Positions 4,499-47,204 of a DNA stretch of 64,000 nucleotides are shown here, piece by piece. The position numbers were made by a program, and so were the translations under genes. The notes beneath the pieces were generated by a model that was not told the origin of the DNA, ran no database searches, and saw only the letters and a program-made list of their open reading frames with translations. Origin of the DNA: Candidatus Vogelbacteria bacterium (GTDB lineage Bacteria > Patescibacteriota > Minisyncoccia > Phycocordibacterales > XYD1-FULL-46-19); the NCBI GenBank assembly GCA_016188295.1, contig JACPIA010000011.1:3993-67992 (forward strand). Reading direction: 5' to 3'. The stretch's first letter is position 1. The number at the start of each line of letters is the position of its first letter.

Positions 4499-4639
4499 GG
4501 CATTTCTCCCTTATTTTTATGGGCCCAATTGCCCACTTCCATCCCTATCGTCTCTACCTTCTATTATACACCCATTCCTCATTCCTGTCAATAGTCCACC
4601 ACAGAGGACGGTCCTCTGTGGTAAATAACCTTTATTTAT

Positions 4640-4664
4640 CAACAACGAGGCTAAGCCTCGTTGT
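4640..4664. repeat. REP-like palindromic element, copy 1 (ACAACGAGGC-TAA-GCCTCGTTGT)
   Basis: 10-bp perfect stem with 3-nt loop, followed by GTTTTG. Same core as the copies at 32398, 33094 and 44506. Confidence 0.7.
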
Positions 4665-4682
4665 GTTTTGAATAACAAAAAA

Positions 4683-4716
4683 CTGCTCATCCACGTCTAG
4701 GATGAGCAGTTTCAGA
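4683..4716 (-). terminator. Strong hairpin (CTGCTCATCC/GGATGAGCAG) with flanking A/T tracts; terminator-like on the minus strand
   Basis: 10-bp stem (4683-4692 and 4700-4709), 7-nt loop. On the minus strand it is followed by TTTTTTGTTATTC. No annotated minus-strand gene lies upstream of it. Confidence 0.4.
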
Positions 4717-4845: not shown

Positions 4846-4910
4846 ACTCATCTCAAATCAAGATGAGTATTATAGACATAAAAAAATTATATCTATAATA
4901 CTCATCTTGA
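4846..4910. promoter_or_regulatory. Compound palindrome upstream of pilB: 18-bp perfect inverted repeat (4858-4875 / 4893-4910) with a 17-nt A/T spacer, plus three ACTCATCT half-sites
   Basis: TCAAGATGAGTATTATAG ... CTATAATACTCATCTTGA. ACTCATCT occurs at 4846 and 4900, and AGATGAGT at 4861. Confidence 0.45.
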
Positions 4911-5035
4911 TTATTTTAAGAACATCTTATTTTAAAGTAACAAAAACTATACTATCTAGTCAAGTATTTCATAAATGGACTCTAAATAGACCAATTGTGG
5001 GTTATCCCCAACTTACGCTCTAGTAAGTTTGGCGT

Positions 5036-6784: not shown

Positions 6785-6789
6785 AATCA

Positions 6790-6950
6790 AACTGAGAACC
6801 CTCTAAGCAATCCCTTCAATAGTGCTATTAAAGTTAGGAAAATTCGTCAGGATGGCTCTCGTAAGTCCTCCAAAAGAGGAAACCAAAGCGTCCTGCCAAA
6901 TAGACCCGTACGAGATGTTGCCATCTCAATTGCTTAGAGGGTTCTCGGTT
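6790..6950. repeat. Inverted-repeat-bounded 155-bp element between pilB and ruvB (candidate structured ncRNA or MITE)
   Basis: 18-bp perfect inverted repeat GAGAACCCTCTAAGCAAT (6794-6811) / ATTGCTTAGAGGGTTCTC (6929-6946) enclosing 117 nt that contain smaller hairpins. Confidence 0.4.
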
Positions 6951-6989
6951 GGATTAATACCAGCTCTATGTTAGCATAAAACAAATTAT

Positions 6990-7964
6990 ATGTCAATAGA
7001 ACCTCAAAACGATATCACTTATCTTGATAAATCCCTCCGGCCAACAGTGTGGGGTGATTATATCGGCCAAGCTTCGACTAAGCAAAATTTACAGATTTTA
7101 ATTAATGCCGCGCGAGAGCGGGGTCATCCACCGGAACACTTATTATTTTACGGACCACCTGGTTTGGGCAAAACCACCTTGGCTTATTTAATCGCTGAAG
7201 AAATGGGCGCTCAAATTAAGGTCACCTCCGGTCCGGCGATTGAAAAGGTGGGCGATCTGGCTTCCATTTTAACCAATTTATCCCCGGGTGATATTTTATT
7301 CATTGACGAAGTACATCGTTTGAACAAATTAATCGAGGAGGTATTGTATCCGGCCATGGAATCAGGTTCCCTTAATATTATTTTAGGTAAAGGACCGGGC
7401 GCCCGCGTTATTCAACTTGATTTACCACCCTTTACTTTAGTGGCGGCCACCACTCGCTTAGCTTTACTGTCGGCTCCCTTGCGTTCCCGTTTCTCTGGTG
7501 GCACCTTTCGTTTAGAGCTTTATCAACCAGAGGAAATCGCTCAAATTATTAAGCGCTCCGCTTTATTATTAAATATTGAGCTCGAGAGTGAAGCGGCGCG
7601 GGCTATTGCCGAGCGTAGTCGTTGTACTCCTCGTATTGCTAATCACTTACTTAAGCGTTGTCGCGACTTTGCCCAAGTATCTAAAACGACCTTAACTCGT
7701 GAAAGTGTTAATGATTGTTTGACCATGCTTGGCTTAGATAATTTAGGTTTATCCCCCGCCGATCGTTTATTACTCGAGACTTTAGTGGATAAATTTAATG
7801 GTGGACCGGTAGGAGTTGGTACTTTAGCTACTGCCTTATCGGAGGAGGAAGATACGATTGAAGATGTTCATGAGCCTTATTTAATTCAACTGGGCTTACT
7901 AGAGCGCACTCCGCGTGGCCGAGTAGTAACCACTCATGGCTACAAACATTTGGGCCGACTATGA
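6990..7964 (+). CDS. ruvB: Holliday junction branch migration helicase RuvB
   Basis: GPPGLGKTTLA Walker A. Length and C-terminal winged-helix region match RuvB. Confidence 0.95.
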   Translation: MSIEPQNDITYLDKSLRPTVWGDYIGQASTKQNLQILINAARERGHPPEHLLFYGPPGLGKTTLAYLIAEEMGAQIKVTSGPAIEKVGDLASILTNLSPGDILFIDEVHRLNKLIEEVLYPAMESGSLNIILGKGPGARVIQLDLPPFTLVAATTRLALLSAPLRSRFSGGTFRLELYQPEEIAQIIKRSALLLNIELESEAARAIAERSRCTPRIANHLLKRCRDFAQVSKTTLTRESVNDCLTMLGLDNLGLSPADRLLLETLVDKFNGGPVGVGTLATALSEEEDTIEDVHEPYLIQLGLLERTPRGRVVTTHGYKHLGRL

Positions 7965-12417: not shown

Positions 12418-12680
12418 TTTATTTAATATTAATTATTTTTATTTTAGTTTGTTGTTGATTAATAAAATTTAATAATTTTTGTTTATTAATTATTAAATCA
12501 CTTTTAAACACTGGGTTAAGTTTAATAAATAACACTTTATTTTGTAAAGAAATATTCTTAGTTAAGATTAATTCTTTATATTTTATAAAAATAAACTTTA
12601 TCACCAACTCTTTCACCATCCGTTCAGGATTTGTAAATTTATCTAATAAACCCAATAAACTACTTATTTTTTTAATAATT

Positions 12681-13781
12681 TTAACGATTAACCGGCATTA
12701 CTAAATATTTAAACAACTTATTACCCACTCCTGAAATTAATAATGGTTTATTAACACCTGATGATTTAAGTTCTATCCGCTCAGCATCTAAAGAATTAAA
12801 AGACTCAGTTAAATATCGCGCATTTACTTTTACCTCTATCTCCTCTCCATTAGATTCATTATTAATTGAAGTGGTAGTTTGGCCGATATCTTGATTAATC
12901 GCTGACACTTCACATATTTTATTTTTAGGATTAATTAATAAATTAACATGATGAAATTTGTCAGCAAAAATTGTCGATACTTTAAGTGCTTCTGTTAACT
13001 CTAATTGAGAAATTAAAACGGTGGTTGAAAAGTTTTTTGGTATAATCTGACGATAGTCTGGGTATACCCCATCAATAATCCTTGAGGTAATTAAAAAACT
13101 AGAGTGATAAAGAGATAATTGGTTTTTATCAACCTTAATTACTATTTCCCCTTTAGCCCCTTCTATTACTCGACTAATATCATTAACATTTTTAATTGGA
13201 ATAATAATCGATGGTGTTTCATTAATTAAAGTTAAGGGGATTTTTTTCTCCGCTAATCTAAAAGAATCTGTGGAAACAAATACTAAATACTCCCCATCAT
13301 GATATAAATACACACTCGCAATCTCTGGTTTAATATCGGAGGTAGCTGAAGCATAAACTACTGATTTTAAACCAAGTAAAAATAAACTAATTGGTAAGGA
13401 AAAATTCACTCCATCAATCACTTGTGGGATAGTTGGAAAATCATCCGGTAAAAATCCTTTAATTTTAGAGTGGTGATTAAAAGTATCCACCAACACTATC
13501 CCATCCTTTAATTCAAAAGTAATAATCTCTGTTGGTGGAATAGTCCCTAATACTCCCGCAATTAATTGAGCTGGTAAACAAATTGAACCATTTTTACTAT
13601 CAAATACTGTTAAATAAAATTCCACTCCTACTTCCAAATTAGTTACCTTTAAAGTTAGTTTATTATCTTTAATTAAAAAGAAAATCGTATTAAGTATCGG
13701 TAAGGAAGAATTTTTACCAGCAATTTTTTCAATCAGTAAAATAATATTTTTTATTTCTTTGTAATTACAGGAGAATTTCAT
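12681..13781 (-). CDS. dnaN: DNA polymerase III beta sliding clamp
   Basis: 366 aa. Sits downstream of dnaA. N-terminal pattern typical of DnaN. Confidence 0.85.
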   Translation of the reverse strand: MKFSCNYKEIKNIILLIEKIAGKNSSLPILNTIFFLIKDNKLTLKVTNLEVGVEFYLTVFDSKNGSICLPAQLIAGVLGTIPPTEIITFELKDGIVLVDTFNHHSKIKGFLPDDFPTIPQVIDGVNFSLPISLFLLGLKSVVYASATSDIKPEIASVYLYHDGEYLVFVSTDSFRLAEKKIPLTLINETPSIIIPIKNVNDISRVIEGAKGEIVIKVDKNQLSLYHSSFLITSRIIDGVYPDYRQIIPKNFSTTVLISQLELTEALKVSTIFADKFHHVNLLINPKNKICEVSAINQDIGQTTTSINNESNGEEIEVKVNARYLTESFNSLDAERIELKSSGVNKPLLISGVGNKLFKYLVMPVNR

Positions 13782-13967
13782 AGTTATATTTTATATTTAA
13801 GATTTGTTATTACTATTATACTTGGGGAAAAGTGGATAACCCTTAAAAATACTTTTAAAACATAAGTTTTTATTTAAATTAATTGTGGATAATTTTAAAT
13901 AATTTTCCCCAGAAAAAATATTTTCTAAAAATAAATTAAAAATAATCATAAAGTTATCAATATAATA
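13782..13967. promoter_or_regulatory. Candidate oriC / DnaA-box cluster in the AT-rich dnaA-dnaN intergenic region
   Basis: Perfect DnaA box TGTGGATAA (13884-13892, reverse complement TTATCCACA) and near-consensus GTGGATAAC (13832-13840) in a strongly AT-rich spacer. Confidence 0.5.
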
Positions 13968-15380
13968 TTAAGAGTTATACAGTAATATCCGAATCTGATT
14001 TAACTCTTGGTTTAATAAAGAATTATTTTTAATATCGTTTTTAATCTTTTCATACGCGTGGATTACAGTGGTGTGATCACGACCACCTAATTTTTGACCA
14101 ATATAAGGGTAAGAAGTGTTAAAATCCTCACGTAAAATATACATAATTACTTGACGAGGTTTAACTACTTCTTTACGTCTAGTTTTTTCATATAACATTT
14201 TTTCATCAATATTATAAAAATCAGCAATGATCTTCATCACTTCTTTAATTGAAACTGATTTTTGGGGTTTAATTGAGTTTTTAACAATCACTTTAACTTC
14301 ATTTAAGGTTAAATCCCGTTTTTTAGCTTGTGATTGAATAATAATCGAGTTAAGAGCCCCCTCTAACTCTCGGATATTATCTTGGACAACAGAAGCTAAA
14401 TACTCAATTACCTCATCGATTGGGGTAAAACCCGTTAAAACCTTTATTTTTGAACGTAAAATAGCTAAACGTGACTCAAAATCCGGACGCGAAACATCGA
14501 CCACCATCCCCCCTTCAAAACGGGAGCGCAACCGATCTTCCAGATTAGGAATTTGTTTTGGTGGTTTATCAGAGGAAAAGATAATTTGTTTATTATTTTC
14601 ATAAAAACTATTAAATAAATGAAATAATTCTTCTTGGATCTTTTCTTTACCAGCTAAAAACTGGATGTCATCCATGATTAATAAGTCGTATTTACGATAT
14701 TTTTCTTTAAATAAGTTACCGCGATTATTTTGGAGACAACTCACAAAATCAATTAAAAAAGTCTCAGAGGTAATATAGTAAATCTTTTTTTGATCACTCA
14801 TTTTTCGGATTTGATTACCAACCGCTTGCATTAAGTGGGTTTTTCCTAATCCGGTATGACCGTAAATAAATAAAGGATTGTAATTATTACCGCCGGGATT
14901 TTTAATAATCGCTTGTGCGGCCGCACAAGCGATCTCGTTAAACGGACCAATTACTAAACTATCAAAGGTATATTTGGGGTTTAAATTACTCTCCTTGTTG
15001 ATGTAGAGCTCATTAAGGCCTAGTCCTTCATTAAAAGGGGATGTTTTGTTATAAGAGGAGTGGATTAGTCGTGGTTTATCGTCGTTTTTAGTAATCATAT
15101 ACTCAACCATTCTCACTGATGAGTAATTAGTCCGTAACGACTTAAGTATTATTTTATGATATTTATTAATTAACCAATCCCGAACAAAAGTATTGGGGAC
15201 ACTTAAGTAGATTGTCCCAGCACCATCTTGTTTAGCAATATAGGTGTTTTTAAACCAAGTGCCAAAATTTGCTTTAGAAACCTCTTGCTCAATCACCAAT
15301 AATGATTTTGACCATAAGGTATCGTTATCTGGATTCATGATGCCCTGATTATAACGACAAGCTTTAGTCAATACAAACAT
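13968..15380 (-). CDS. dnaA: Chromosomal replication initiator DnaA
   Basis: AAA+ Walker A GHTGLGKTHLMQAVGN. The C-terminal DNA-binding domain is conserved. The true start may be the internal MNPDND. Confidence 0.95.
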   Translation of the reverse strand: MFVLTKACRYNQGIMNPDNDTLWSKSLLVIEQEVSKANFGTWFKNTYIAKQDGAGTIYLSVPNTFVRDWLINKYHKIILKSLRTNYSSVRMVEYMITKNDDKPRLIHSSYNKTSPFNEGLGLNELYINKESNLNPKYTFDSLVIGPFNEIACAAAQAIIKNPGGNNYNPLFIYGHTGLGKTHLMQAVGNQIRKMSDQKKIYYITSETFLIDFVSCLQNNRGNLFKEKYRKYDLLIMDDIQFLAGKEKIQEELFHLFNSFYENNKQIIFSSDKPPKQIPNLEDRLRSRFEGGMVVDVSRPDFESRLAILRSKIKVLTGFTPIDEVIEYLASVVQDNIRELEGALNSIIIQSQAKKRDLTLNEVKVIVKNSIKPQKSVSIKEVMKIIADFYNIDEKMLYEKTRRKEVVKPRQVIMYILREDFNTSYPYIGQKLGGRDHTTVIHAYEKIKNDIKNNSLLNQELNQIRILLYNS

Positions 15381-30814: not shown

Positions 30815-31193
30815 ATTATTGATTGCAGTAATAATGTTAAGTACCTTAGTGTTGCCTAATGCTTATGCAATCGGTAATCCCTCGGTATTGGTAGCGTCTA
30901 ATTTTGGCGGTCGAATTTTAGCTACTATCCCCTGTACTTGTACTTTTAATTTAAAATTAATTTTAAGTCCAGTGGCACCTACTTTACCTGTAGAGGTAAT
31001 CTTTCAACCGGGGATTAGTATTTTGTATCGTTACGGGATGTTAGTACCAACCGCTTGGGTGTTAGGGCGGACCATCGGTTCGTCTACGTGTTGGGTCGGT
31101 TTAATCCCGTTTTGTGTACCAGTACCGAGTGTGGAGGGGGGAATTGTAAGCCCATTGATTCATATGGTGGGCACTTCTTTGCCAGGAATATAG
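30798..31193 (+). CDS. Small secreted hydrophobic Cys-containing protein; candidate pilin-like subunit
   Basis: Signal peptide (LVLPNAYA), then an about 105-aa mature part with two hydrophobic segments and 6 Cys. Confidence 0.4.
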   Translation: MNHKFKLLIAVIMLSTLVLPNAYAIGNPSVLVASNFGGRILATIPCTCTFNLKLILSPVAPTLPVEVIFQPGISILYRYGMLVPTAWVLGRTIGSSTCWVGLIPFCVPVPSVEGGIVSPLIHMVGTSLPGI

Positions 31194-31633
31194 ATTGCAC
31201 TAGTGCCAGTGGCGATATTGTTTTGGCTAGTCCACCTAGCATTTACTTCTAAAACATACTGTGCTGGTTCGGTGGGGTAAAAGACTGTCGGGTAAGTGCT
31301 TGGGTTAATATTGTAGTGTATCCCTACTATCCGCCATTCGCTGTCTAACCAAATGATGTCGATGGCAAAACGCATCTCCTTCATCCAAAAGCCATAACGA
31401 CCGGGTTTATCAAAAATAAATAGCATTCCCGTGTCTTGGGCTAAACTTTCTCTACCTGATAAACCTAGTTCTTGTTTGGCTGGAGTGTCTGCTAATTCAA
31501 TTTTTATATTAGTTTCACCAAAACTTAAATAATTTTGATCCGGTTTGATTTTTTTAGGCCAAATTAAAATAGCTAAGATTAAAATAATAATTACTACAAC
31601 AATTAAACTTATTTTCGAGCGAGACATAACCAC
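31160..31633 (-). CDS. DUF192-family protein (COG1430)
   Basis: N-terminal TM. Motifs MLFIFDKPGRYGFWMKEMRFAIDIIWLD are typical of DUF192. Confidence 0.65.
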   Translation of the reverse strand: MVMSRSKISLIVVVIIILILAILIWPKKIKPDQNYLSFGETNIKIELADTPAKQELGLSGRESLAQDTGMLFIFDKPGRYGFWMKEMRFAIDIIWLDSEWRIVGIHYNINPSTYPTVFYPTEPAQYVLEVNARWTSQNNIATGTSAIYIPGKEVPTI

Positions 31634-32391
31634 TTTTCAAACTCCACATTCTCAGGGCGAACATCAGGATTAATCCCACACTTAATTAATTGCTCATTAT
31701 ACTCGGTTAAAGTATTACTTAATTTTTTACGCTTACCACTAAAGGCTTGTTTGACTAGTTTAAAAAAGTGCTCAACTTCAATGTTTTTTGGCGCCGGATG
31801 AATATTATCAAATAAAATAATACTAGAATCAACTTTGGGCGCTGGGTTAAATAAAATTTTGGGTACAGTCGCGATGTAACTCGGCTTGCAATATAATTTT
31901 ACCGCTAAAGAGAGCACGCTCTCTTTATTTTTGTAACTAGTGACACGCTCGCCTACCTCTTTTTGGATTAATAACACTGCAAGTGTTGGTCGCTGATTAG
32001 CTTGTAAAAATAATTTAATTAATTCACCAGTTAAATAGTATGGGATATTGGCAATTAATTTATGTTTTTTAGTTTTTAAAGTAGTTGGTAAATTTTCTTG
32101 ATAATATAAATCTAAAATATCACCCTCAATTAATTCTAATTTACCCTCTTTAATCTCCTGCTCAAATTTTTTAGCTAAAATAGGGATTAATCGGGCATCT
32201 TTCTCAATTGCCACCACTTTGGCACCGACATTAAGTAAATTTGTGGTTAATGTCCCCTCGCCTGGGCCGACCTCCAGTACCATATCCCCAGCCTTTACCG
32301 CTCCCGTTTTAATCATCAAATTAAGTATCTCTTGGTCATCCAAAAAGTGCTGCCCTAATGACTTTTTCGCTCTAATCGCTCTAATACTCAT
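31609..32391 (-). CDS. rsmA: 16S rRNA (adenine1518/1519-N6)-dimethyltransferase RsmA/KsgA
   Basis: SLGQHFL motif and SAM-binding LEVGPGEGTLT. ATG at 32391 chosen. The ORF-track TTG at 32403 lies inside the REP element. Confidence 0.85.
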   Translation of the reverse strand: MSIRAIRAKKSLGQHFLDDQEILNLMIKTGAVKAGDMVLEVGPGEGTLTTNLLNVGAKVVAIEKDARLIPILAKKFEQEIKEGKLELIEGDILDLYYQENLPTTLKTKKHKLIANIPYYLTGELIKLFLQANQRPTLAVLLIQKEVGERVTSYKNKESVLSLAVKLYCKPSYIATVPKILFNPAPKVDSSIILFDNIHPAPKNIEVEHFFKLVKQAFSGKRKKLSNTLTEYNEQLIKCGINPDVRPENVEFEKWLCLARK

Positions 32392-32396
32392 ATTTT

Positions 32397-33062
32397 TCAA
32401 CAACGAGGCTTAGCCTCGTTGGAGTAGGATAGCCAGTCATGTAAGTAATCTACCACTTCTTTTTTGGATTCAAAAACTGACAAAGACTCTTTGTTGATAA
32501 TCTTATTTTCGATTCGCTCTTGATCTAGCCAATCGTGGAGACTAGAATAATGGTAATTTTTTAAAAAATCCTCCGTTTTTACTAAATCAGCAAGACCGGA
32601 CTCTTTCCAATCGGCCTTGACCATTTTTACTGGATTTAAATGAATGTAAGTATGGACATAAGCAAGGTATTCTTCTGAATCGATGTGTTTGGCTTGGAAA
32701 TTAGACTCAAATAGTCTTCCTTTGCGCTCCTTAATTTTATTAAAATACATGGTGTAAGAGGTGGCGACTCGGTGCATAAAAGCGCTGATACCATTTTCTT
32801 TTCTTTCTTTAGCTAATATATGAAAGTGATTATCCATTAGACAATAACCGGCAATATCAACCAATAACTCTCCTCGATCAAACTCGTATTCCTCACCTGG
32901 TTTAAGATAAAAAAAGTGAAATGGATTTTGGCCATTGCATAAGTACAATAGCTTTACAAAGCGATCACGATCTTTATCAGTATGAAAGATAATACGTTTA
33001 TCGTTTCCACGGTTATAAAGGTGATACCACTCGTCTGGAGCAAAGCTAATTTTTCTACTCAT
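32397..33062 (-). mobile_element. REP-associated tyrosine transposase (RAYT; IS200/IS605-like Y1 HuH transposase, COG1943)
   Basis: YHLYNRGN N-terminal motif. HuH motif MDNHFHIL. Catalytic-Tyr region YLAYVHTYIHLNPVK. Flanked on both sides by the same 23-bp palindrome. Confidence 0.75.
32398..32422. repeat. REP-like palindromic element, copy 2 (flanks the RAYT gene)
   Basis: CAACAACGAGGC-TTA-GCCTCGTTGG. Identical to the copy at 33094. Overlaps the last codons of the RAYT ORF. Confidence 0.7.
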
Positions 33063-33093
33063 ACCCTAAATATCTTAACATATCCTTATTTTT

Positions 33094-33118
33094 CAACAAC
33101 GAGGCTTAGCCTCGTTGG
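33094..33118. repeat. REP-like palindromic element, copy 3 (flanks the RAYT gene)
   Basis: TTTTTCAACAACGAGGCTTAGCCTCGTTGG, 32 nt upstream of the RAYT start. Same orientation as copy 2. Confidence 0.7.
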
Positions 33119-33128
33119 GGATAAGGCC

Positions 33129-33164
33129 AAAGAAAACACCTGGGTGCGTGTACGCACCCAGGTG
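33129..33164 (-). terminator. Rho-independent terminator of uvrD/pcrA
   Basis: 12-bp perfect stem CACCTGGGTGCG/CGCACCCAGGTG with loop TGTA. On the minus strand it is followed by TTTTCTTTGG. Confidence 0.65.
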
Positions 33165-33271: not shown

Positions 33272-35161
33272 CTAAAAATCGACAATACTCAAACGATTAG
33301 TTTCGGTGGTGAGGAGGTGATTGGGAATCTCAGAGAGGAATTCAGATGGAATATTAAAGCGACGATTACCAAAAACTAGACGAGTTTCAGTATAAGAAAG
33401 ATAGATTTTTTTACGAGCCCGGGTGAGAGCGACGTAAAAAAGGCGTCGTTCTTCCTCGTTGTCGCGCTCCTCGGTGCCTATTGGCGCGTGAGGAAAGAGA
33501 TCTTGCTCCAGGCCGGTAATAAACACATAATCAAATTCCAAACCTTTGGCCGCATGCACGGTCATTAATTTAACACCATCAACTTGACCATTATCATCAT
33601 CTTGATCACTAGTCAAAGCAATATCGGCTAAAAGCATAAAAAGGCCATCACTGCCGTGTGGGTCATAAGCAGTAGCCACGGTTACCAATTCCCGCAAGTT
33701 TTCCAATCGATCAATGTCATCTTCGCTCCCTTTTTTTAACTCCGCTTCCAAACCAGTCAATCGTAATACTTCTTTAATAATTGAGGAGGGTAAACTCGTT
33801 TCGGTCAGTAATTTGATTTTATCAAGCAATAAATAAAATTGATCCACTTTTTGGCGGGTGCCGGCGGGTAACTCAGTATATTGTCCGGCGGCCAATTTAA
33901 TTAAAGTAGTTTTACCGATCCCTCGGGCCGGTACATTAATAACGCGCCGGATGCTCCCCCAATCCTCACGATTGATCGCCGCTTTAATAAAAGCGATTAA
34001 ATCTTTAATTTCTTTGCGTTCATAAAAGCGGGTACCAAGTAAAATGTAAGGAATAGTATTTTTAATCAGCGCTTCTTCTAAAATACGAGATTGAAAATTG
34101 GTCCGATACAATAACGCTATTTCTTTATAGTTTACTTTACCTTCACCTACTAACTGTTCAATAATAGTGGCAATACCTAGAGCTTCGTCAGCCTCGGTGC
34201 TGTAAGCACTTAACGTCAGTTGCTCACCGTTTGCTCCTCGAGTAAATAAATTTTTGGCTTTGCGTTTTTTATTATTAACAATCACGGCATTAGCCGCCTC
34301 TAAAATGATTTTAGTAGAGCGATAATTTTCTTCCAAAGTAATTGTTTTGACATTATCAAAATCACGTTCAAAACGCAGTAAGTTTTCAAAATCGGCACCA
34401 CGCCAACTATAAATCGATTGATCAATGTCGCCCACTACACAAATGTTCTGCTTGCTTCCGGCTAATTGGCGCGAGAGTTCATATTGAATACCATTCGTAT
34501 CTTGATACTCATCAATATGGACATGTGACCACTTGATTTGGTAATGTTTCAAGATATCCGGTCGTTCTCTAAATAAAATAGTAGTTTTCAATAATAAATC
34601 GTCAAAATCAAGCCCGCCCCGCTCGCGTAATAAGTTCTCGTATTTTTCCCAAACTGGTTTTACCAGCTTGGAAAAAAAATCATAAGTTGTCGGTACGTAA
34701 TCATTCACCATTAAACCATCGCTTTTAGCTTTAGAGATGGCACCTAAAAAACGTTTCGGTTCAAACTTTTTAGGATCAATGTTTTGTGCAATCAATACTT
34801 CTTTAACTACATCCGTAGATTCACCTCGATCATAGATTGAAAAATTTTTCGGTACGCCGATAGTCAAACCATGCTCGCGTAAAATTCGGACACCAAGACC
34901 GTGAAACGTGGTGGCTAACAATGGCTCGTTTCCCTCAGGCAAGAGCTGATGTAAACGCTCGCGCAATTCTTTAGCCGCTTTATTGGTAAAAGTAATGGCG
35001 ATAATCGCGCGCGCCGGTATACCCTGATTAATTAAATGCAAAATCCGATGAGTCACCGTTTTAGTTTTACCGGCGCCGGCGCCGGCCAATACCAATAATG
35101 GTCCATCGGTAGTCAGCACAGCCTGCTTTTGAGCTTCATTTAGAGTGTCTAAGTAATACAC
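33272..35161 (-). CDS. ATP-dependent DNA helicase, UvrD/PcrA/Rep family
   Basis: Motif I GAGAGKTKT. Conserved SF1 helicase motifs throughout. 629 aa. Confidence 0.85.
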   Translation of the reverse strand: MYYLDTLNEAQKQAVLTTDGPLLVLAGAGAGKTKTVTHRILHLINQGIPARAIIAITFTNKAAKELRERLHQLLPEGNEPLLATTFHGLGVRILREHGLTIGVPKNFSIYDRGESTDVVKEVLIAQNIDPKKFEPKRFLGAISKAKSDGLMVNDYVPTTYDFFSKLVKPVWEKYENLLRERGGLDFDDLLLKTTILFRERPDILKHYQIKWSHVHIDEYQDTNGIQYELSRQLAGSKQNICVVGDIDQSIYSWRGADFENLLRFERDFDNVKTITLEENYRSTKIILEAANAVIVNNKKRKAKNLFTRGANGEQLTLSAYSTEADEALGIATIIEQLVGEGKVNYKEIALLYRTNFQSRILEEALIKNTIPYILLGTRFYERKEIKDLIAFIKAAINREDWGSIRRVINVPARGIGKTTLIKLAAGQYTELPAGTRQKVDQFYLLLDKIKLLTETSLPSSIIKEVLRLTGLEAELKKGSEDDIDRLENLRELVTVATAYDPHGSDGLFMLLADIALTSDQDDDNGQVDGVKLMTVHAAKGLEFDYVFITGLEQDLFPHAPIGTEERDNEEERRLFYVALTRARKKIYLSYTETRLVFGNRRFNIPSEFLSEIPNHLLTTETNRLSIVDF

Positions 35162-35206: not shown

Positions 35207-35602
35207 ATGACGGAAGCAATTATCCCTTCTATTGAGTTTGAGCAAGAATTACAAGCGCTCTCTAAAAAAGTGGAGATGGTTCGTGAAGCGCGTGAGAGTG
35301 AAGCTGGTATTGTAAATGAATTACCAACCGAGACTATTCGCCAAGTGATTGGTGAAATGGTTACCGTCGAATCATCATCAGTCAAACCGGAATCAGCGCC
35401 AATTAATACCCAAACTAGTTATTTAAGTAGTGTCAGTAGTGATCAAGCTCAACTGGTTAATGATTTAATTGTCCAAGTGCCAATTAAAGGACTCAAAAAA
35501 ACAATTGCCAGTGTGGCCGATAATCCGGCTTTGCTTGATATGTTTCACGATTCGTTAATCGATTTTTTATACGATGAGCTTAAACAGCGTAATTTGGTTT
35601 AA
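35207..35602 (+). CDS. Hypothetical protein upstream of the coupling protein gene
   Basis: 131-aa ORF ending 3 nt before the T4CP gene. No recognizable motif. Confidence 0.4.
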   Translation: MTEAIIPSIEFEQELQALSKKVEMVREARESEAGIVNELPTETIRQVIGEMVTVESSSVKPESAPINTQTSYLSSVSSDQAQLVNDLIVQVPIKGLKKTIASVADNPALLDMFHDSLIDFLYDELKQRNLV

Positions 35603-35605
35603 ACT

Positions 35606-37981
35606 ATGGATCCATTTTTGTTGACGATCGGTGCCTTAGGTACGGTATTTTTAGTGTCAGGAGTGGCGCTCTTAGTCATGTATATTTTGCGTCAGCGTAA
35701 AATTGAGTCGCTCAATTTAAAATTATTATTAATTACGGTACCGCGCCCGGAGGAGAAAGAAGGCTCTAATCAACTCGATGCGATTGCTTCCACTGAGCAA
35801 TTGATGGTCGCTTTGGCCGGGATTAGCCGCTCGTTTGTCTTTGAGGTAGTGGTCCAAAATGCCGGAGAGGAAATTTTATTTTATTTAGCGGTACCGCGCT
35901 CCCAATTAACAAGTGCTAAAACACAAATCGAAGGGCTCTTCCCTCGGGCGGAGGTAACCGAGATTTCCGACTATACTATTTTCCATCCTGATGGTGGCAG
36001 TGCCGCGGCGCATTTAACTTTAACCGAAAATGAAGCTTTACCACTCCGGACTTATAAAGAAGCAGGTGTCGACACTTTTGCGGCAATTGTAAACACCTTA
36101 TCGCATCTGCGCGAGTCGGGCGATGGTGCCACTATCCAATTGGTGGTAACACCAACCGATAACAGTATCAAAAAAACTTTAGCGAAAATGGTGGAACAAT
36201 TAAAGCAGGGCAATTCCTTTTCCTCTCTGGTTAAAAAAGGTAATTTATCTTTAGAGGTGGTAGCTAAGGCGTTAATGAGTGATAAATCATCAACCAAAAA
36301 AGATAAGTCAGAAAATAAGATAGTTGATGAGGAGGCAGTCAAAGCGCTTAGTCTTAAAATGGCTAAACCCTTATTTAAGGTCAATATCCGGGTAATTACC
36401 GCCTCGGACACCACAGCCGTGGCTGAAGATTTACTGCTGGCCATTGCTGGGCAATTTAATCAATTTGCTTCACCCTATCGTAATAATTTTAAATTAGTTA
36501 AAGCTCGCCGGCCCAAAAAGTTACTCTATCAATATATCTTCCGCGAGTTTGATCCCAGCCAAGCTTTTACTTTAAATGCCGAGGAGTTGGCTAGTATTTT
36601 CCATTTACCTACCGCCACTACCGCCGGTCCGCGGATTAGTTGGCTTAATACTAAAGAGGCACCACCACCACCTAATTTACCGCGAACTGGTACTTTAATT
36701 GCCGAGAGTATTTTTAGGGGTGAGACTAAACCGGTTTATCTCTCGGATGCTGATCGCCGCCGCCACTTGTATTTGATTGGTCAGACCGGTACTGGTAAAT
36801 CGCTCTCGATGCTTAATATGATTAATCAGGATTTACTCAATGATAAGGGTTTATGTTTAATTGATCCGCATGGTGACCTAGTCGATGCCGTCCTAGAGCG
36901 TGTGCCTAAAAGTCGGATTGATGATGTGATTGTATTTAATCCCGGTGATCTGGCTCGACCACTAGGACTCAACATGCTTGAGTACAATTTTGACCGACCA
37001 GAGGAAAAAACTTTCATCGTCAACGAGATCCAATCGATTTTTAATCAGCTCTTTGATAAAGAGACAATGGGTCCGATGTTTGAGCAGTATATGAGGAATG
37101 CCCTCCTTTTATTAATGGAAGATGCCAATCCCGCCAAAGGTGGAGAGTCCGCCACTTTAATGGAAGTGTCGCGTTTATTCACCGACACCGAGTTTCGTAA
37201 TCGTAAATTGGCTCGGATCACTAATCCAAGCGTGATCGATTTTTGGACTAAAGAGGCAGTTAAGACCAGCGGGGAGCAAGGTTTGGCCAATATGACACCA
37301 TATATTACTTCAAAATTTGGTAATTTTGTGGCTAACGACTATATGCGGCCGATTATCGGTCAGCCGCAATCAGCGTTTAATTTCCGCACAGTCATGGATG
37401 AGGGTAAAATTTTGCTCGTCAATTTAGCTAAAGGTAAAATTGGCGATATTAACTCGGGGCTCTTGGGTATGATTATTACAGGTCGCCTGTTGTTAGCGGC
37501 ACTCTCTCGCTCCGATATTCCCGAAACTGAGCGCCGTGACTTTAACTTATATATTGATGAATTCCAAAACTATACCACTGACTCGATTTCGACCATCTTG
37601 TCGGAAGCGCGGAAATATCGACTTAATCTAACAATTGCTCATCAATTTATTGCCCAACTTAAAGACAATATCCGGGAATCAGTCTTTGGTAACGTTGGTT
37701 CGATTATCTCCTTTAGAGTTGGTACTCCTGATACGGAAGTATTACTTAAACAATTTGGCTCGGTATTTACCTCCCATGATTTAGTTAATAATGAGAATCG
37801 CCACGGCTTTGCTCGAATCTTAATTAATGGTGAACCAAGTATTCCTTTCTCGATCCAAGTGCCCTTGCCTAAACTCGGCTCGGTGGAAGTCAAAGATAAA
37901 CTTAAAGAACTCTCTCGCCTCACTTATGGCCGTGATTTAACAAGGATTGAAGGTGATATTTTAACTCGCCTGCGCTCATAG
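35606..37981 (+). CDS. Type IV coupling protein (VirD4/TraG/TrwB-like ATPase) with N-terminal TM
   Basis: N-terminal TM. Walker A LIGQTGTGKS, IDPHGD motif, Walker B LYIDEFQNY. 791 aa. Confidence 0.7.
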   Translation: MDPFLLTIGALGTVFLVSGVALLVMYILRQRKIESLNLKLLLITVPRPEEKEGSNQLDAIASTEQLMVALAGISRSFVFEVVVQNAGEEILFYLAVPRSQLTSAKTQIEGLFPRAEVTEISDYTIFHPDGGSAAAHLTLTENEALPLRTYKEAGVDTFAAIVNTLSHLRESGDGATIQLVVTPTDNSIKKTLAKMVEQLKQGNSFSSLVKKGNLSLEVVAKALMSDKSSTKKDKSENKIVDEEAVKALSLKMAKPLFKVNIRVITASDTTAVAEDLLLAIAGQFNQFASPYRNNFKLVKARRPKKLLYQYIFREFDPSQAFTLNAEELASIFHLPTATTAGPRISWLNTKEAPPPPNLPRTGTLIAESIFRGETKPVYLSDADRRRHLYLIGQTGTGKSLSMLNMINQDLLNDKGLCLIDPHGDLVDAVLERVPKSRIDDVIVFNPGDLARPLGLNMLEYNFDRPEEKTFIVNEIQSIFNQLFDKETMGPMFEQYMRNALLLLMEDANPAKGGESATLMEVSRLFTDTEFRNRKLARITNPSVIDFWTKEAVKTSGEQGLANMTPYITSKFGNFVANDYMRPIIGQPQSAFNFRTVMDEGKILLVNLAKGKIGDINSGLLGMIITGRLLLAALSRSDIPETERRDFNLYIDEFQNYTTDSISTILSEARKYRLNLTIAHQFIAQLKDNIRESVFGNVGSIISFRVGTPDTEVLLKQFGSVFTSHDLVNNENRHGFARILINGEPSIPFSIQVPLPKLGSVEVKDKLKELSRLTYGRDLTRIEGDILTRLRS

Positions 37982-38160
37982 CCAAAAGGGGTCTAAAAGG
38001 CTATAATAAGGCGGTTAGTCTAAATTCCCTTTAAACCTTTATTCAGACGCCTCACTATTCTCGTATAGCTAAACTTAAAAGCCGTTACCGACGGGTATTT
38101 ATTGGTGGTGGGCTTTTATTACTAATAACTACGCCGGTATATGCCTCCTGGGATACTTTA

Positions 38161-39084
38161 ATGGAACGTTTTTTAGACTCAATTAGTTCAAATCAGTTAA
38201 TGGGGCGCTCCCAAACCGCTCAAACAATGTCTCTACTCCAAGCTATTTCCTCGCCTGATCCTAAAGTGGCAGTTGGCGGTGGCGATATTACGATTGTTAA
38301 TGATTCAGCCTTACTTCCCGACATTGGGCCATTAGGGACGATTGCTGATATTGTCGAGATTCCACCTTCCGATCAAATCAGTATTTATGTGGTGCGCAAG
38401 GGCGATACTCTCTTGGCGATTGCTAAAATGTTTAATGTTTCGGTTAACACCATTATGTGGGGCAATGATTTGGCTCGTGGGACTGCTCTTAAAGAAGGTC
38501 AGACCTTGACTATTTTGCCAATTTCCGGTATCCGCTACACTGTTAAGTCGGGTGATACTCTCGCCTCAATCGCGACCAAATACAAAGGCGACGCTGAAGA
38601 AATTGCTCAGTTTAATGGTCTAGATCATGGTGCCCGTTTAACGGTGGGTAATATTTTAATTGTGCCTAATGGTGAGATAGCGGTAGCGACACCGGTTAGA
38701 ACTACTACCGGCACTGTAGGCAGTAATTTGTCCACTTTTATCGGTAACTTGATGCGTCCAATCCGCGGTGGAATCAAAACTCAAGGGATACATGGTTTTA
38801 ATGGAGTAGATCTATCTAGTGCTTATGGAGCTGAGGTTTTTGCTGCTTCGGCTGGCACTGTGATTATTGCTCGAAATGGTGGTTGGAATGGTGGCTATGG
38901 TAGTTATGTGGTGGTCGATCATAGTAATGGAGTCCAAACTTTATATGCCCACCTAAGCAAAGTAATGGTGGCGCAAGGTCAACGAGTGATCCAAGGTCAA
39001 GTAGTGGGTGCCCTCGGCAATAGTGGTCGCTCTACCGGTCCTCATCTCCACTTTGAAGTTCGCGGTACTAAAAATCCGTTTTAA
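38161..39084 (+). CDS. LysM-LysM-M23 (LytM-family) peptidoglycan endopeptidase
   Basis: Two LysM repeats (YVVRKGDTLLAIAKMF, YTVKSGDTLASIATKY). M23 motifs (HxxxD region, HLHFEVR). An in-frame signal-peptide-like extension lies upstream of the ATG with no canonical start codon. Confidence 0.8.
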   Translation: MERFLDSISSNQLMGRSQTAQTMSLLQAISSPDPKVAVGGGDITIVNDSALLPDIGPLGTIADIVEIPPSDQISIYVVRKGDTLLAIAKMFNVSVNTIMWGNDLARGTALKEGQTLTILPISGIRYTVKSGDTLASIATKYKGDAEEIAQFNGLDHGARLTVGNILIVPNGEIAVATPVRTTTGTVGSNLSTFIGNLMRPIRGGIKTQGIHGFNGVDLSSAYGAEVFAASAGTVIIARNGGWNGGYGSYVVVDHSNGVQTLYAHLSKVMVAQGQRVIQGQVVGALGNSGRSTGPHLHFEVRGTKNPF

Positions 39085-39095
39085 GATCAAAATAT

Positions 39096-39132
39096 AAGGT
39101 CTCGCCTTTTTGGAGATCCAAGGCGAGACCTT
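39096..39132. terminator. Hairpin between convergent M23 peptidase and lexA-operon genes
   Basis: 11-bp perfect stem AAGGTCTCGCC/GGCGAGACCTT with a 15-nt loop. Confidence 0.45.
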
Positions 39133-39135
39133 GGA

Positions 39136-41872: not shown

Positions 41873-43072
41873 TTACTCTACCACAGGCAAGCGGGACAAG
41901 GCCACCACTTTTTCCATCGTGGCGGGTGAGATGGTAATGACTAAAGTTTGATTATCGATAAAAGCATAGAGTAAGTGTGGTTGGCCATTGGTGTCGACAA
42001 TGGCTCGGGCATCAATATTTTTAATCAATAAATCAGTAAATCCGCCAGCTGGCGGAACGGTCTTTAAAGTGTTGTAGCTAGTATCTGGGAAATACGGTTT
42101 GATTAACGGCGCTAAAATACTTGATCCGTGAGCTAGTAATTGAGCAGCTATATTCTCATATGAATTGATCGTCAAAATGATAAACGGTTCAGTGCCGGTG
42201 GGGGTGTGATACAGGCCCAACAGCCAATTATTATTCAAAAAACGGATAAATGGTCGTGGCAGTTCGATGCCGAGTATTTCATTGGTTTCGCGCAAACCGA
42301 GTACTGCTTTAGCTTCTAAAGTCTTATCATCTTCATCGATCTCGGCGATCACTTTAGTAAAGTAAAGACCGGTGGTGCTGTCGGTAGGGCCACTAGCTTG
42401 GACAGTCCGCCTGACTTTAGGGAGTAGGGTTTCTGTTGTTTCACCACTGGTGATCACCTCATATTGAGTATCGGTGGGGAGTATCAATTTAACTGCTGTT
42501 TGCGGAGTAATGGTGGTCGAGGCGATCGGATTTAATTTAAAAACATAAGCGATCACTAATCCCCCACCGGCTAAAAGTACTAAAGTTAAAGCAATAATGG
42601 CAATAGTAGTATAGGCTTGATGCTCCACTTGTTTAGCGCTTTGACGACGTAAGGCTTGAGCTTCGAGAGCGATTTTAGCCATTGAAAGTTTGCGGCTGGA
42701 GGCGGCATCTTGGACATCAGTTTTTAAGGTCCGTACAGAACTTAAACTGACGCGTGGTTCACCACGCAATTGTTCGGTTAAAGTGGCCGCTTCGCGTCCT
42801 TTAGCTATCCGACTGGCTTTAGCGGCCTCAGACTCGCGGGCGCTCGCCTCAGCCGCCGCTCGCTCTTTAGCCTCTTTAGCGGCTACCTCCGCATTATGTT
42901 TTTTGATTTGTTCGTCGTGAATTTTTTGGGCCAGTTTTTTCTCGGCTTCTAAGCGTTCAGCTTCGACACGTTTACTGCGGCGGGCCGAGCCCTCCATCGC
43001 CAAAATAGCCTGTTCACGACGTTTAGCTAATGTCTCTGTATCGGTGGGGATTCTCTGCTCCTCGGGAGGCAT
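41873..43072 (-). CDS. Hypothetical membrane protein with charged coiled-coil N-terminus and single TM
   Basis: A/E/K-rich N-terminus, TM LTLVLLAGGGLVIAYVF, C-terminal globular region. Confidence 0.45.
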   Translation of the reverse strand: MPPEEQRIPTDTETLAKRREQAILAMEGSARRSKRVEAERLEAEKKLAQKIHDEQIKKHNAEVAAKEAKERAAAEASARESEAAKASRIAKGREAATLTEQLRGEPRVSLSSVRTLKTDVQDAASSRKLSMAKIALEAQALRRQSAKQVEHQAYTTIAIIALTLVLLAGGGLVIAYVFKLNPIASTTITPQTAVKLILPTDTQYEVITSGETTETLLPKVRRTVQASGPTDSTTGLYFTKVIAEIDEDDKTLEAKAVLGLRETNEILGIELPRPFIRFLNNNWLLGLYHTPTGTEPFIILTINSYENIAAQLLAHGSSILAPLIKPYFPDTSYNTLKTVPPAGGFTDLLIKNIDARAIVDTNGQPHLLYAFIDNQTLVITISPATMEKVVALSRLPVVE

Positions 43073-44155: not shown

Positions 44156-44359
44156 GTCTTTCTCCTTATACTTATAGTTGAGTTAAGTTTGACCTCAGGT
44201 TGACCTCTGAATCTACTACTAGCACTTAATTAAGCTAACTGTCAAGGTCTCGCCTTGGCAATGGTTTTATTCAGTTAGATGTGGTTTAATTGAAATTGGA
44301 ATTGGCTAGTTGCTAGTTGAATCGAGTTCTCATTGGGATTGTCTAAAAATAGGAGAAAA

Positions 44360-44497
44360 ATGATGAAAAGGATCATTAAATGGCTCCGCCGGTTAAGAAA
44401 GAACTGGATTCGGAGAAGGCGACACCGGGAAGGTCTTCGGCAATTAGATGAGCAACTAAGTCTGATTCGCCGACAACAAAGATTGGGCCGGTCATGA
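44360..44497 (+). CDS. Small arginine-rich protein (45 aa) with strong RBS, hypothetical
   Basis: AGGAG 5 nt upstream of the ATG. MMKRIIKWLRRLRKNWIRRRRHREGLRQLDEQLSLIRRQQRLGRS. Followed by the REP hairpin acting as a terminator. Confidence 0.4.
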   Translation: MMKRIIKWLRRLRKNWIRRRRHREGLRQLDEQLSLIRRQQRLGRS

Positions 44498-44505
44498 GAA
44501 TACCA

Positions 44506-44545
44506 CCGCAACGAGGCTAAGCCTCGTTGCGGTTTCTGTTTACTT
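44506..44545 (+). terminator. REP-like palindromic element, copy 4, functioning as an intrinsic terminator
   Basis: 12-bp stem CCGCAACGAGGC/GCCTCGTTGCGG, loop TAA, followed by TTTCTGTTTACTT. Confidence 0.55.
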
Positions 44546-46328: not shown

Positions 46329-47204
46329 ATGGCTGGGAGCGAAATTCAAAAGTTAAAACAAGAGTTTTTGGAGTACTTGGAGATTGAGCGCGGGCGGAGC
46401 GTTAAAACGGTGGAGAATTATGATCGCTACCTTACACGACTTTTTATTTTTGGTAAAGTAACTAAAATTAGTGACATTGATGACGACTTAGTGCGTCGCT
46501 TCCGCCTCACTATTAATCGTGAGAATTTAAAAAAGAACACTCAAAACTATCATTTAATCGCTTTACGCACTTTTCTTAAGTTTTTAGCTAAAAAAGGGAT
46601 TAAATCCCTCGCCCCCGAGCGCATTGAGCTCGCTAAAGTGGGTGCCCGTGAGCTTGACCTTATTACCGAGGCCGAACTTAAGCGCTTACTTGATGGTCCT
46701 AAAACTAATACCCTCTCGGGCTTGCGCGATAAAGCACTATTAGAACTCTTATTTTCCACTGGTCTACGCGTCTCGGAATTATGCTCCTTAGATCGCGACA
46801 GTATTGACCTTTCTCGCGGTGAGTTTACCATCCGTGGTAAGGGAGAGAAGGTTCGCCTCGTTTTCCTCTCTCCAGAAGCGGCGAGTTATTTAAAAAGTTA
46901 TGAGGGGAAGCGTAAGGATTTAGACGAGGCTTTATTTATTAACCCTGATGGTGGCCGGCTTAGTCCTCGCTCTATTGAGCGTTTGGTTAAAAAATATGCC
47001 ACCCAAGCCGGTATTGGCCGCCGAGTCACACCCCACACCCTCCGCCACTCCTTTGCCACTGACCTGCTCCAAAATGGGGCGGACATTAGATCAGTACAAG
47101 TGATGTTAGGTCACGCCAATATTACCACTACTCAAGTGTATACCCATGTTACCGACCGCCAACTCCGCGAGATCCACAAAAATTTTCATAATAAGAAAAA
47201 ATGA
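46329..47204 (+). CDS. Tyrosine recombinase, XerC/XerD-like
   Basis: C-terminal R..HxxR..Y motifs (HTLRHSFATDLL ... TTQVYTHV). 291 aa. Confidence 0.8.
   Translation: MAGSEIQKLKQEFLEYLEIERGRSVKTVENYDRYLTRLFIFGKVTKISDIDDDLVRRFRLTINRENLKKNTQNYHLIALRTFLKFLAKKGIKSLAPERIELAKVGARELDLITEAELKRLLDGPKTNTLSGLRDKALLELLFSTGLRVSELCSLDRDSIDLSRGEFTIRGKGEKVRLVFLSPEAASYLKSYEGKRKDLDEALFINPDGGRLSPRSIERLVKKYATQAGIGRRVTPHTLRHSFATDLLQNGADIRSVQVMLGHANITTTQVYTHVTDRQLREIHKNFHNKKK

Follow-up and report, generated by a model that had tools for sequence, protein, structure and literature searches.

A RAYT-like gene and its flanking hairpins in Candidatus Vogelbacteria: a candidate REPtron-like unit in the candidate phyla radiation

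The stretch of Candidatus Vogelbacteria DNA analysed here (referred to, at its full length of 64,000 nucleotides, as 'the window') contains on its minus strand a gene for a protein of the Y1 HUH nuclease superfamily, which resembles the REP-associated tyrosine transposases (RAYTs; REP, repetitive extragenic palindromic) and which is bracketed by two copies of a short palindrome. Nearly all work on RAYTs and REPs has been conducted on Proteobacteria, and the role of either in the host is unsettled. Bacteria of the candidate phyla radiation (CPR, or Patescibacteria), to which an earlier interpretation made from the letters alone (the sequence-only reading) had correctly assigned this host, are known for very small genomes. 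The locus raises the question of whether the gene and its palindromes form a mobile insertion sequence, a set of ordinary regulatory sites, a part of some host pathway for the processing of DNA, or a resident enzyme that is accompanied by a repeat of its own. The answer favoured here, at a probability of roughly 0.6, is a REPtron-like unit, in which one fixed, vertically inherited class-2 Y1 HUH enzyme is paired with a cognate DNA hairpin that is copied at low number.

The enzyme and its hairpin

The 221-codon open reading frame (ORF) with NHFHIL and YIHLNPVK motifs, which had been taken for a RAYT, is present as described (Table 1), and its product scores 30.5 bits against the Pfam model PF01797 (Y1_Tnp; cut-off 23) over residues 68-141, which places it in the Y1 HUH superfamily. 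The catalytic residues are intact: the HUH motif is formed by H78 and H80 (within NHFH), Tyr138 is located within YIHLNP, and a YSS motif is found in the C-terminal tail. In an alignment across 35 homologs, 215-260 amino acids in length, H78, H80, Y138, N142 and P143 are invariant, and F117 and S172-S173 vary hardly or not at all, within a motif set consisting of N77-H-F/Y-H80, L116-F117-E, YIHLNP and Y-S172-S173. The sequence Y138-I-H-L-N142-P143 corresponds to the Y-x3-N-P signature of the class 2 TnpA-Y1 enzymes, and not to the Y-x3-Q of IS200.

Because a search of the Protein Data Bank (PDB) with the sequence profile of the family returned nothing useful (best E=0.5), structural comparison was needed instead. 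An AlphaFold2 model of the protein (mean predicted local distance difference test score, pLDDT, 93) found as its top PDB match the E. coli RAYT bound to its REP hairpin (4er8_A; E=1e-5, template modelling score 0.63), with an identity in the structural alignment of just 14%; the TnpA proteins of IS608 and ISDra2 matched two orders of magnitude more weakly (E of approximately 2e-3), and the stronger structural matches were all to Y1 transposases, apart from three Thg1 chains. The assignment to the RAYT branch of the Y1 HUH enzymes thereby holds in a broad sense, and fails for the canonical type: the protein is called a non-canonical RAYT because it reaches only 43.8 bits against the NCBIfam model NF047646 (REP_Tyr_transpos), for which the equivalog cut-off is 80, and because an hhalign comparison of the family profile with E. 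coli RayT gave a weak match (E=8e-4, probability 24%). On its motifs and predicted fold, the protein is a class-2 Y1 HUH enzyme and a RAYT in that broad sense. The family profile matched a P. aeruginosa plasmid protein carrying the signature of subclass 2.1 (NHVH/WE/YIELNP) with E=3e-18, and for a Sporomusa protein the value was E=4e-20. By motifs and profile scores, the enzyme thus appears to be closest to the subclass 2.1 or Group 1 ('TIRYT') type. A tblastn search found no second RAYT gene in the window; no tnpB gene adjoins this one or occurs elsewhere in the 64 kb, and no helix-turn-helix or DnaA-C-like domain was found by Pfam in the C-terminal tail.

The palindrome, originally given as 23 bp, is 21 nucleotides (nt) in length and reads CAACGAGGC-TWA-GCCTCGTTG (CAACGAGGCTWAGCCTCGTTG in full). 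Two identical copies in the same orientation do bracket the gene, and the palindrome also occurs elsewhere in the window, as had been claimed: exact copies are found at 4643-4663, 32401-32421, 33097-33117 and 44509-44529 (the cores of units A to D in Table 1), or four matches against 0.01 expected by chance, a number reached in none of 100 shuffles. No further copies were found in the window at up to three mismatches, nor with one mismatch on the 13-nt apex, and the exact 21-mer had no matches in a collection of one genome per species. Of the strong perfect palindromes in the window, 14 in number, only this one forms a repeated family. Its copies, which are short, dispersed, genome-specific and located outside or at the ends of genes, thus behave as REP sequences are defined to do, although all four are single units and none is organised as an inverted doublet (REPIN, the replicating unit). 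As single-stranded DNA, all four would fold far more stably than shuffled sequence (z=-5.8 to -7.5, plus strand). A conserved GTAG-like or GT[AG]G foot, which accompanies the hairpins of canonical RAYTs, was found neither in the window nor in its relatives, and a scan of the window with Rfam returned four tRNAs only.

The two copies that bracket the gene are embedded in a 39-nt direct repeat (32384-32422 and 33080-33118; 36/39, or 92%, identical), in which an AT-rich tail (TTATTTTTCAA) comes first and the hairpin after, with a start-to-start spacing of 696 bp. Use of the loop (TAA or TTA) as a marker of orientation was ruled out, and orientation was instead read from the tails, because the two loops differ by a single central base; the 'opposite loop orientation' that had been ascribed to the dispersed copies is merely this difference, and the 5' tail TTATTTATCAACAAC places the copy at 4643 in the same orientation as both of the gene-flanking copies, while no tail is present at the copy at 44509. 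The latter is a hairpin with a 13-bp stem at 44505-44533, and not at 44506-44545 as first given (Table 1). Hairpin B contains the last seven RAYT codons and the stop codon, so that the reported overlap with the end of the gene stands. As for the alternative ksgA start that it was also said to overlap, the TTG at 32403 is simply the first possible start listed by the ORF-finding program, and the likely start of ksgA is the ATG at 32391, 10 nt beyond the end of the hairpin.

Association across the family and inheritance of the locus

While such a system had been expected to be noteworthy in a CPR bacterium, profile searches indicate otherwise. With clustering at 50% identity, the profile of the RAYT-like family matches 1,125 clusters when E<=1e-30 is required and 14,643 when the limit is E<=1e-10. 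At least 556 relatives turned up when one genome was scanned for each species, and the best 80 of them are nearly all from Patescibacteria; the family is thus common across the CPR, and its presence there is not exceptional. Association with hairpins was examined in these best 80 loci, chosen by protein similarity alone, of which 75 had both flanks available, and was scored when a perfect palindrome with a stem of 7 bp or more and a loop of 3-7 nt occurred, in identical form, within 150 nt on each side of the gene. Forty of the 75 loci displayed such a pair, against none of 740 control placements, and loci scored as negative may hold shorter stems of 6 bp (for example, L139). The sequence of the palindrome varies from genome to genome; the flanking copies are inverted in approximately 19 loci and direct in approximately 13; and across the family one copy is located 19-140 nt upstream of the gene, with another at or just after its stop codon. 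In at least 12 loci (L127, L135, L138, L144, L154, L169, L175, L176, L191, L116, L075 and L112), a third copy is found in frame inside the RAYT ORF, at +150 to +190 nt and before the HUH motif, with the ORFs (218-234 codons) remaining intact; the RAYT gene of the window has no such in-frame copy.

On the minus strand of the window, the order of features is a VirD4/TraG-like coupling protein gene and a small ORF (these two being encoded on the other strand), the UvrD-type helicase gene (uvrD), unit C, the RAYT-like gene, unit B, ksgA and a DUF192 gene. The position is shared by five relatives in which the RAYTs are 57-70% identical, and the run uvrD-RAYT-ksgA-DUF192 recurs, sometimes with one or two extra genes, on the P0009 contig and in L003-L005 and L053. 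On two short contigs, in which the upstream gene was not identified, the corresponding order is RAYT-ksgA-DUF192 (L209) and RAYT and then the beginning of a ksgA-like ORF (L210), and in L001 a homolog that is 60% identical is located elsewhere, between HIT and RecJ genes and near ComEC. Comparison of the window with L003 gives identities of 57% for the RAYT, 56% for the coupling protein, 52% for UvrD, 46% for KsgA and 46% for the DUF192 protein. Because the gene is found at the same locus in relatives, with a divergence that matches that of its housekeeping neighbours, it is vertically inherited and is no recent insertion sequence.

The downstream hairpin and its tail (GTTGTTGRAAAATATG, which runs into the start of ksgA) are orthologous in the window, L053 and L209, base for base in the tail. 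Unit C of the window stands in the opposite orientation to the upstream unit of L053 and of L209. The flanking units are thus inverted in these two relatives and direct in the window, so that the direct-repeat arrangement represents a derived flip and the ancestral state in the clade was inverted. In L001, L003, L053 and L209 the RAYT ORF ends at a TAG within the hairpin loop (...EA*); that of the window runs five codons further (NEAKPRC*), because its hairpin has another central base (giving TAA on the gene strand). In L053, the closest relative for which DNA is available (RAYT 70% identical), uvrD and the RAYT are separated by one extra gene of 291 codons with a hydrophobic, signal-like N-terminus, which lies between two hairpin units of the same orientation (365-1510) in a cassette-like arrangement and has no counterpart in the window.

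These observations bear directly upon the possibility that the segment of approximately 0.7 kb from hairpin to hairpin is mobile as an autonomous, IS200-like insertion sequence, with the near-identical units marking its left and its right end, and with solo hairpins as remnants or miniature derivatives. The 696-bp spacing and the nearly identical direct ends in the window fit such an element, the enzyme shares a superfamily with IS200 TnpA, and 25 of the 80 homologs lie within 1 kb of a contig end (against 14.5 expected), as would be the case for repeats that interrupt assemblies. Nonetheless, this explanation appears very unlikely, in view of: (i) the same chromosomal position in five relatives, with divergence equal to that of housekeeping neighbours; (ii) the orthology of the downstream unit; (iii) the motif Y-x3-NP where IS200 has Y-x3-Q (Table 1 of PMC6006769); (iv) the inverted hairpins of the closest relatives and of the majority of other loci; (v) the lack of tnpB or of a second copy in the 64 kb; and (vi) the divergence of the only two paralogs that share a genome among the 80 loci, which are 49% identical and each have a hairpin of their own. 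Repeats or palindromes that break assemblies could also account for the excess of RAYT genes at contig ends.

The neighbouring genes invite a different explanation, in which the enzyme would process single-stranded DNA for the host together with the UvrD-type helicase and the VirD4/TraG-like coupling protein, acting in the manner of a relaxase that nicks a hairpin origin for DNA transfer or uptake, with the flanking hairpins as nicking or recognition sites and their dispersal as a side effect. A block adjoining the RAYT-like gene (35207-39084), consisting of genes for a LysM/M23 peptidase, the coupling protein of a type IV secretion system (791 amino acids), a small protein and the helicase, is conserved in L003 and the P0009 contig; the homolog in L001 adjoins RecJ near ComEC; and retention of the gene in streamlined genomes argues for some benefit. 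Upstream neighbours across the family, however, belong to 99 Pfam families over 73 loci, with UvrD occurring only twice, and a relaxosome-like link to UvrD and the coupling protein was accordingly rejected at the level of the family. Since plain vertical inheritance explains the synteny equally well and the protein is without relaxase-specific features, such a function is improbable to a high degree.

Concerted change of the hairpins

In the group of genomes related to Vogelbacteria, the hairpins share a common apex (CGAGGCTWAGCCTCG), and their lower stems vary between genomes, with changes in one arm matched by changes in the other: CAAC/GTTG in the window, L053 and L209; CCAC/GTGG in L003; CCCAC/GTGGG in L210; and AGTC/GACT in L001. 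Within any one genome, flanking and dispersed copies share a single version of the stem. The copies therefore evolve in concert and, because stems are identical within a genome and differ between genomes, copying or conversion among sites would produce the pattern, where independent drift would not. Copies have also appeared at new sites, namely the two dispersed in the window, one inside ksgA of L003, and the intragenic RAYT copies of at least 12 relatives. The copy in L003 (CCACGAGGCTAAGCCTCGTGG, at 7862-7891, and present also in L004 and L005) is in frame with ksgA and falls in a variable loop of the encoded protein (..SPHEAKPRGK..).

These same features can be used to weigh the notion that the palindromes are ordinary terminators, mRNA stabilisers or double-stranded operators (the last for a dimeric regulator, possibly the C-terminal domain of the protein itself), that the enzyme does not move them, and that the copies at the ends of the gene insulate or regulate its expression. 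Units A and D fit a terminator pattern, and the perfection of the palindromes is often seen at dimer-binding sites; copies at 19-140 nt upstream and at or just after the stop codon are well placed for the control of transcription or read-through; and a -35-like TTGAAA lies in the tail of unit C, where it begins a promoter-like sequence on the minus strand (TTGAAA-16-GATATT, 9/12). Against this, no T-run accompanies unit B or C on either strand, and uvrD already possesses its own terminator-like hairpin 20 nt before unit C. Furthermore, the ksgA coding sequence of L003 and the RAYT ORFs of at least 12 loci contain in-frame copies, terminators leave unexplained why dispersed stems should change in step with gene-flanking ones, and the partner protein has the fold of a single-strand DNA nuclease, the closest solved relative of which was crystallised on such a hairpin. 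A purely regulatory role is therefore judged to be decidedly unlikely. The related proposal that a repeat serves as the terminator of a small basic ORF agrees in part with the terminator patterns at A and D; its domestication for that purpose is unproven, and the ORF in question (45 amino acids, 44360-44497, preceding hairpin D) has no family match.

The mechanism envisaged for the REPtron-like unit is drawn by analogy with E. coli RayT and IS608, which serve as models for the binding and cleavage of hairpins. The 21-nt palindrome and its AT-rich tail of approximately 13 nt would form a hairpin in single-stranded DNA, for example on the lagging-strand template; this hairpin would be recognised by the enzyme through its HUH and tyrosine active site, and DNA beside it would be cut and rejoined. 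Hairpin units would then be copied or replaced in trans at low frequency, while the gene itself stayed in place. The expected outcome is a small family whose members are alike within a genome, with two copies at the ends of the gene and a few that are dispersed, some of which may act incidentally as terminators. The intact catalytic residues, the RAYT-like fold, the family-wide association with hairpins, their concerted and genome-specific sequences and the vertical inheritance of a syntenic gene are the observations on which this reading is built; binding, cleavage and copying by the enzyme are presumed from the models, as are the single-stranded nature of its substrate and the place at which it would cut.

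Several observations weigh against that reading. No cleavage site can be named, no conserved GTAG-like foot is present, and the flanking units of the window are direct, as in an IS200-type element, while those of a classical REPtron and of the closest relatives are inverted. The palindromes, being perfect, could just as well be sites at which a dimeric protein binds duplex DNA. Few distal copies are found in the 10-20 kb loci of relatives, and the 64 kb hold only four copies, so amplification, if there is any, is weak. In addition, the apex GAGGCTWAGCCTC accompanies RAYTs that are just 33-37% identical to that of the window (L075, L112, L070 and L123), while RAYTs that are 45-50% identical (L126-L205) use unrelated hairpins, a comparison that is biased in that the loci were found via the apex sequence. 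Because the sharing of the apex is at odds with the identity of the enzymes, a picture of co-evolution between one enzyme and one hairpin is incomplete. A scan of metagenomes with a 15-nt apex, which is too short for the purpose, found a RAYT homolog in 7 of 120 loci among the matches listed, the rest being mostly probable chance matches; those seven, being selected by the apex, are biased and serve as illustration only.

A variant account places the emphasis on the position of the hairpins. According to it, the CPR harbour a large, vertically inherited clade of Y1 HUH enzymes with cognate hairpins at up to three fixed positions of their own gene (one some 20-60 nt upstream of the ORF, one in frame within it and preceding the HUH motif, and one at the stop codon or directly behind it). 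The hairpins would then belong to a self-targeting or self-regulating circuit, retained by streamlined genomes for some benefit that the enzyme brings to the host, and would not be mainly parasitic repeats. Genes of the Vogelbacteria group stop at the TAG of the hairpin loop, and the change of one central base adds five residues to the protein. This account is regarded as rather unlikely.

Features of the window and relation to known systems

The coordinates of the locus and of the hairpin units are collected in Table 1.

Table 1. The RAYT-like gene, its neighbours and the hairpin units of the window
Feature	Position	Strand	Description
Hairpin unit A	4626..4673	plus	Dispersed, intergenic; core 4642-4664, 10-bp stem, central base A; tail as in B and C (79% over 39 nt); between two other strong hairpins; terminator pattern on plus strand
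DUF192 gene	31160-31633	minus	After ksgA
ksgA/rsmA (RrnaAD) gene	31609..32391	minus	Downstream syntenic anchor
Hairpin unit B	32384..32430	plus	Downstream of RAYT gene; tail ATATTTTTCAA, 9-bp stem, 3-nt loop (32401-32421), short right flank; predicted folding energy as DNA -10.7 kcal/mol (z=-6.3)
RAYT-like Y1 HUH nuclease/transposase gene	32397..33062	minus	221 amino acids, ATG start; motifs ...MDNHFHILA... and ...YIHLNPVKM...
Hairpin unit C	33080..33126	plus	35 nt upstream of RAYT ATG; same orientation as B; core hairpin 33097-33117 inside outer stem CCTTAT/ATAAGG; predicted fold -12.1 kcal/mol, z=-5.8
Terminator-like hairpin of uvrD	33137-33164	minus	
UvrD/PcrA-type helicase gene	33272..35161	minus	Upstream syntenic anchor, outside the element
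Hairpin D	44505..44533		Dispersed, intergenic; 13-bp stem, core 44509-44529; no recognisable tail; predicted fold -18.2 kcal/mol, z=-7.5; terminator pattern on plus strand

Several other repeats were observed in the window. A second small palindromic family, with the unit AAGGTCTCGCCTT, is present as an inverted doublet between convergent genes (39097-39134; REPIN-like, with a 12-nt spacer) and as a single unit at 44242-44258 (two matches against 0.05 expected). This unit is similar to a hairpin that is cognate to another clade of RAYTs (L130, TCCAAGGT-CTC-ACCTTGGA); as the window holds no second RAYT, the partner of the family, if any, would be located elsewhere in the genome. A 17-nt palindrome, ATCCGCCAGCTGGCGGA, occurs at 6502-6518 and 42040-42056, within long ORFs in both cases (two copies, none expected). 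The intergenic region that contains unit A (4598-4712) holds three different strong hairpins (4598-4622, the copy at 4642-4664, and 4680-4712), and a perfect 12/12 match to a sigma-70-like promoter is found close by on the minus strand (4591..4563). A gene for a T2SSE/PilB-like ATPase is preceded by an AT-rich palindrome with 26-nt arms (4856-4912; 96% complementary) and followed immediately by a pair of 27-nt inverted repeats around 117 nt (6785-6955; 93% complementary). The GC content falls to 27% at 12001-14000, against approximately 41% elsewhere. Finally, the cumulative GC skew is lowest near 47 kb, beside genes for a Xer-like tyrosine recombinase (46329-47204) and a CCA-adding enzyme and a cluster of tRNAs; a replication origin was considered there and rejected, as no dnaA is present and the ORFs are those of the two enzymes just named.

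Of the known systems, the RayT of E. coli (YafM or TnpA-REP; 4ER8; subclass 2.2, or Group 2 of Bertels) offers the closest structural parallel, with the Y1 HUH fold and the Y-x3-NP motif in common. The organisation of its REPtron is likewise similar, in that a vertically inherited chromosomal gene, in single copy (here within the 64 kb), is flanked by cognate palindromes that are found elsewhere as well. The differences extend beyond the 14% structural identity, the profile probability of 24% and the score below the NCBIfam cut-off. The protein of the window is 221 amino acids in length, with a helical C-terminal tail of approximately 75, where E. coli RayT has 165; its hairpins have perfect stems of 9-13 bp with a 3-nt loop, and lack the GTAG foot and the bulge of the E. 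coli REPs; and they occur as single units and not as inverted doublets, with four copies in the 64 kb and direct copies flanking the gene. Canonical RAYTs are accompanied by REP families of tens to hundreds of extragenic copies per genome.

The group that resembles the enzyme most closely has been given several names: subclass 2.1 of the TnpA-Y1 enzymes (Quentin et al. 2018, PMC6006769), Group 1 of Bertels (PMC5581495), and TIRYT, the enzyme of the TIRtron (Di Nocera et al. 2013, PMC3733652). The protein of the window shares with it the motifs NH[YF]H, F-[EQ] in place of W, and Y[IV]HLNP, the SS of the tail, and a length of about 220-240 amino acids (approximately 238 in Table 1 of PMC6006769), in addition to the strong profile match to the Pseudomonas plasmid protein that carries the 2.1 signature. 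A further likeness is that the repeats flanking TIRYT-type genes may overlap the ends of the gene, may be self-complementary, and belong to families of only moderate abundance (PMC3733652); the 16-mers that flank Group 1 genes number approximately 12 per replicon (PMC5581495). REP-like hairpins have been reported to be absent in the vicinity of subclass 2.1 genes (PMC6006769). In contrast, the flanks in the window are perfect hairpins, without the GGGGWSAS sequence that is frequent in the terminal repeats of the group, and the earlier surveys of these enzymes make no mention of the CPR.

Two further systems are similar in part. The RAYTs of subclass 2.4, from Cyanobacteria and Bacteroidetes, resemble many of the CPR relatives (not the window) in possessing an in-frame hairpin within the gene, a feature previously reported as unique to that subclass. 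The CPR insertion, however, is located before the HUH motif (at approximately +150 to +190 nt, which falls in the loop that precedes strand beta-2), while that of subclass 2.4 falls between the HUH motif and the tyrosine, and subclass 2.4 further differs by its signature (YIxNNP) and by REPs that have GT[AG]G feet. IS200 (IS200/IS605 family, subclass 1.1) is comparable in size (approximately 0.7 kb), in having a lone Y1 gene between subterminal hairpins, and in the same-strand units of the window, and departs from the present case in its Y-x3-Q motif and its multiple, near-identical copies, where the gene described here is syntenic and has one copy in 64 kb. The hairpins of most relatives, moreover, are inverted, and solo hairpins are dispersed, which is not the organisation of an IS200/IS605 element.

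Among the papers searched, none links RAYT, REP or IS200 elements with CPR bacteria or Patescibacteria. The architecture seen here is that of REPtrons and TIRtrons, and the putative clade extending across the CPR, in which the hairpins would occupy fixed positions of the enzyme's gene, could deserve study in its own right; at present, RAYT-like genes of the CPR are annotated merely as 'transposase', and their perfect palindromes may add to the contig breaks seen in metagenome assemblies of these organisms. The system is a minimal one, consisting of one enzyme and a perfect hairpin of 21 nt, and is suited to the study of binding, cleavage and copying. Because the gene is held at one chromosomal position, is conserved to the same degree as its housekeeping neighbours, and is accompanied by only a handful of hairpins, the finding argues that the enzyme is kept in these bacteria for some reason other than the amplification of its repeats.

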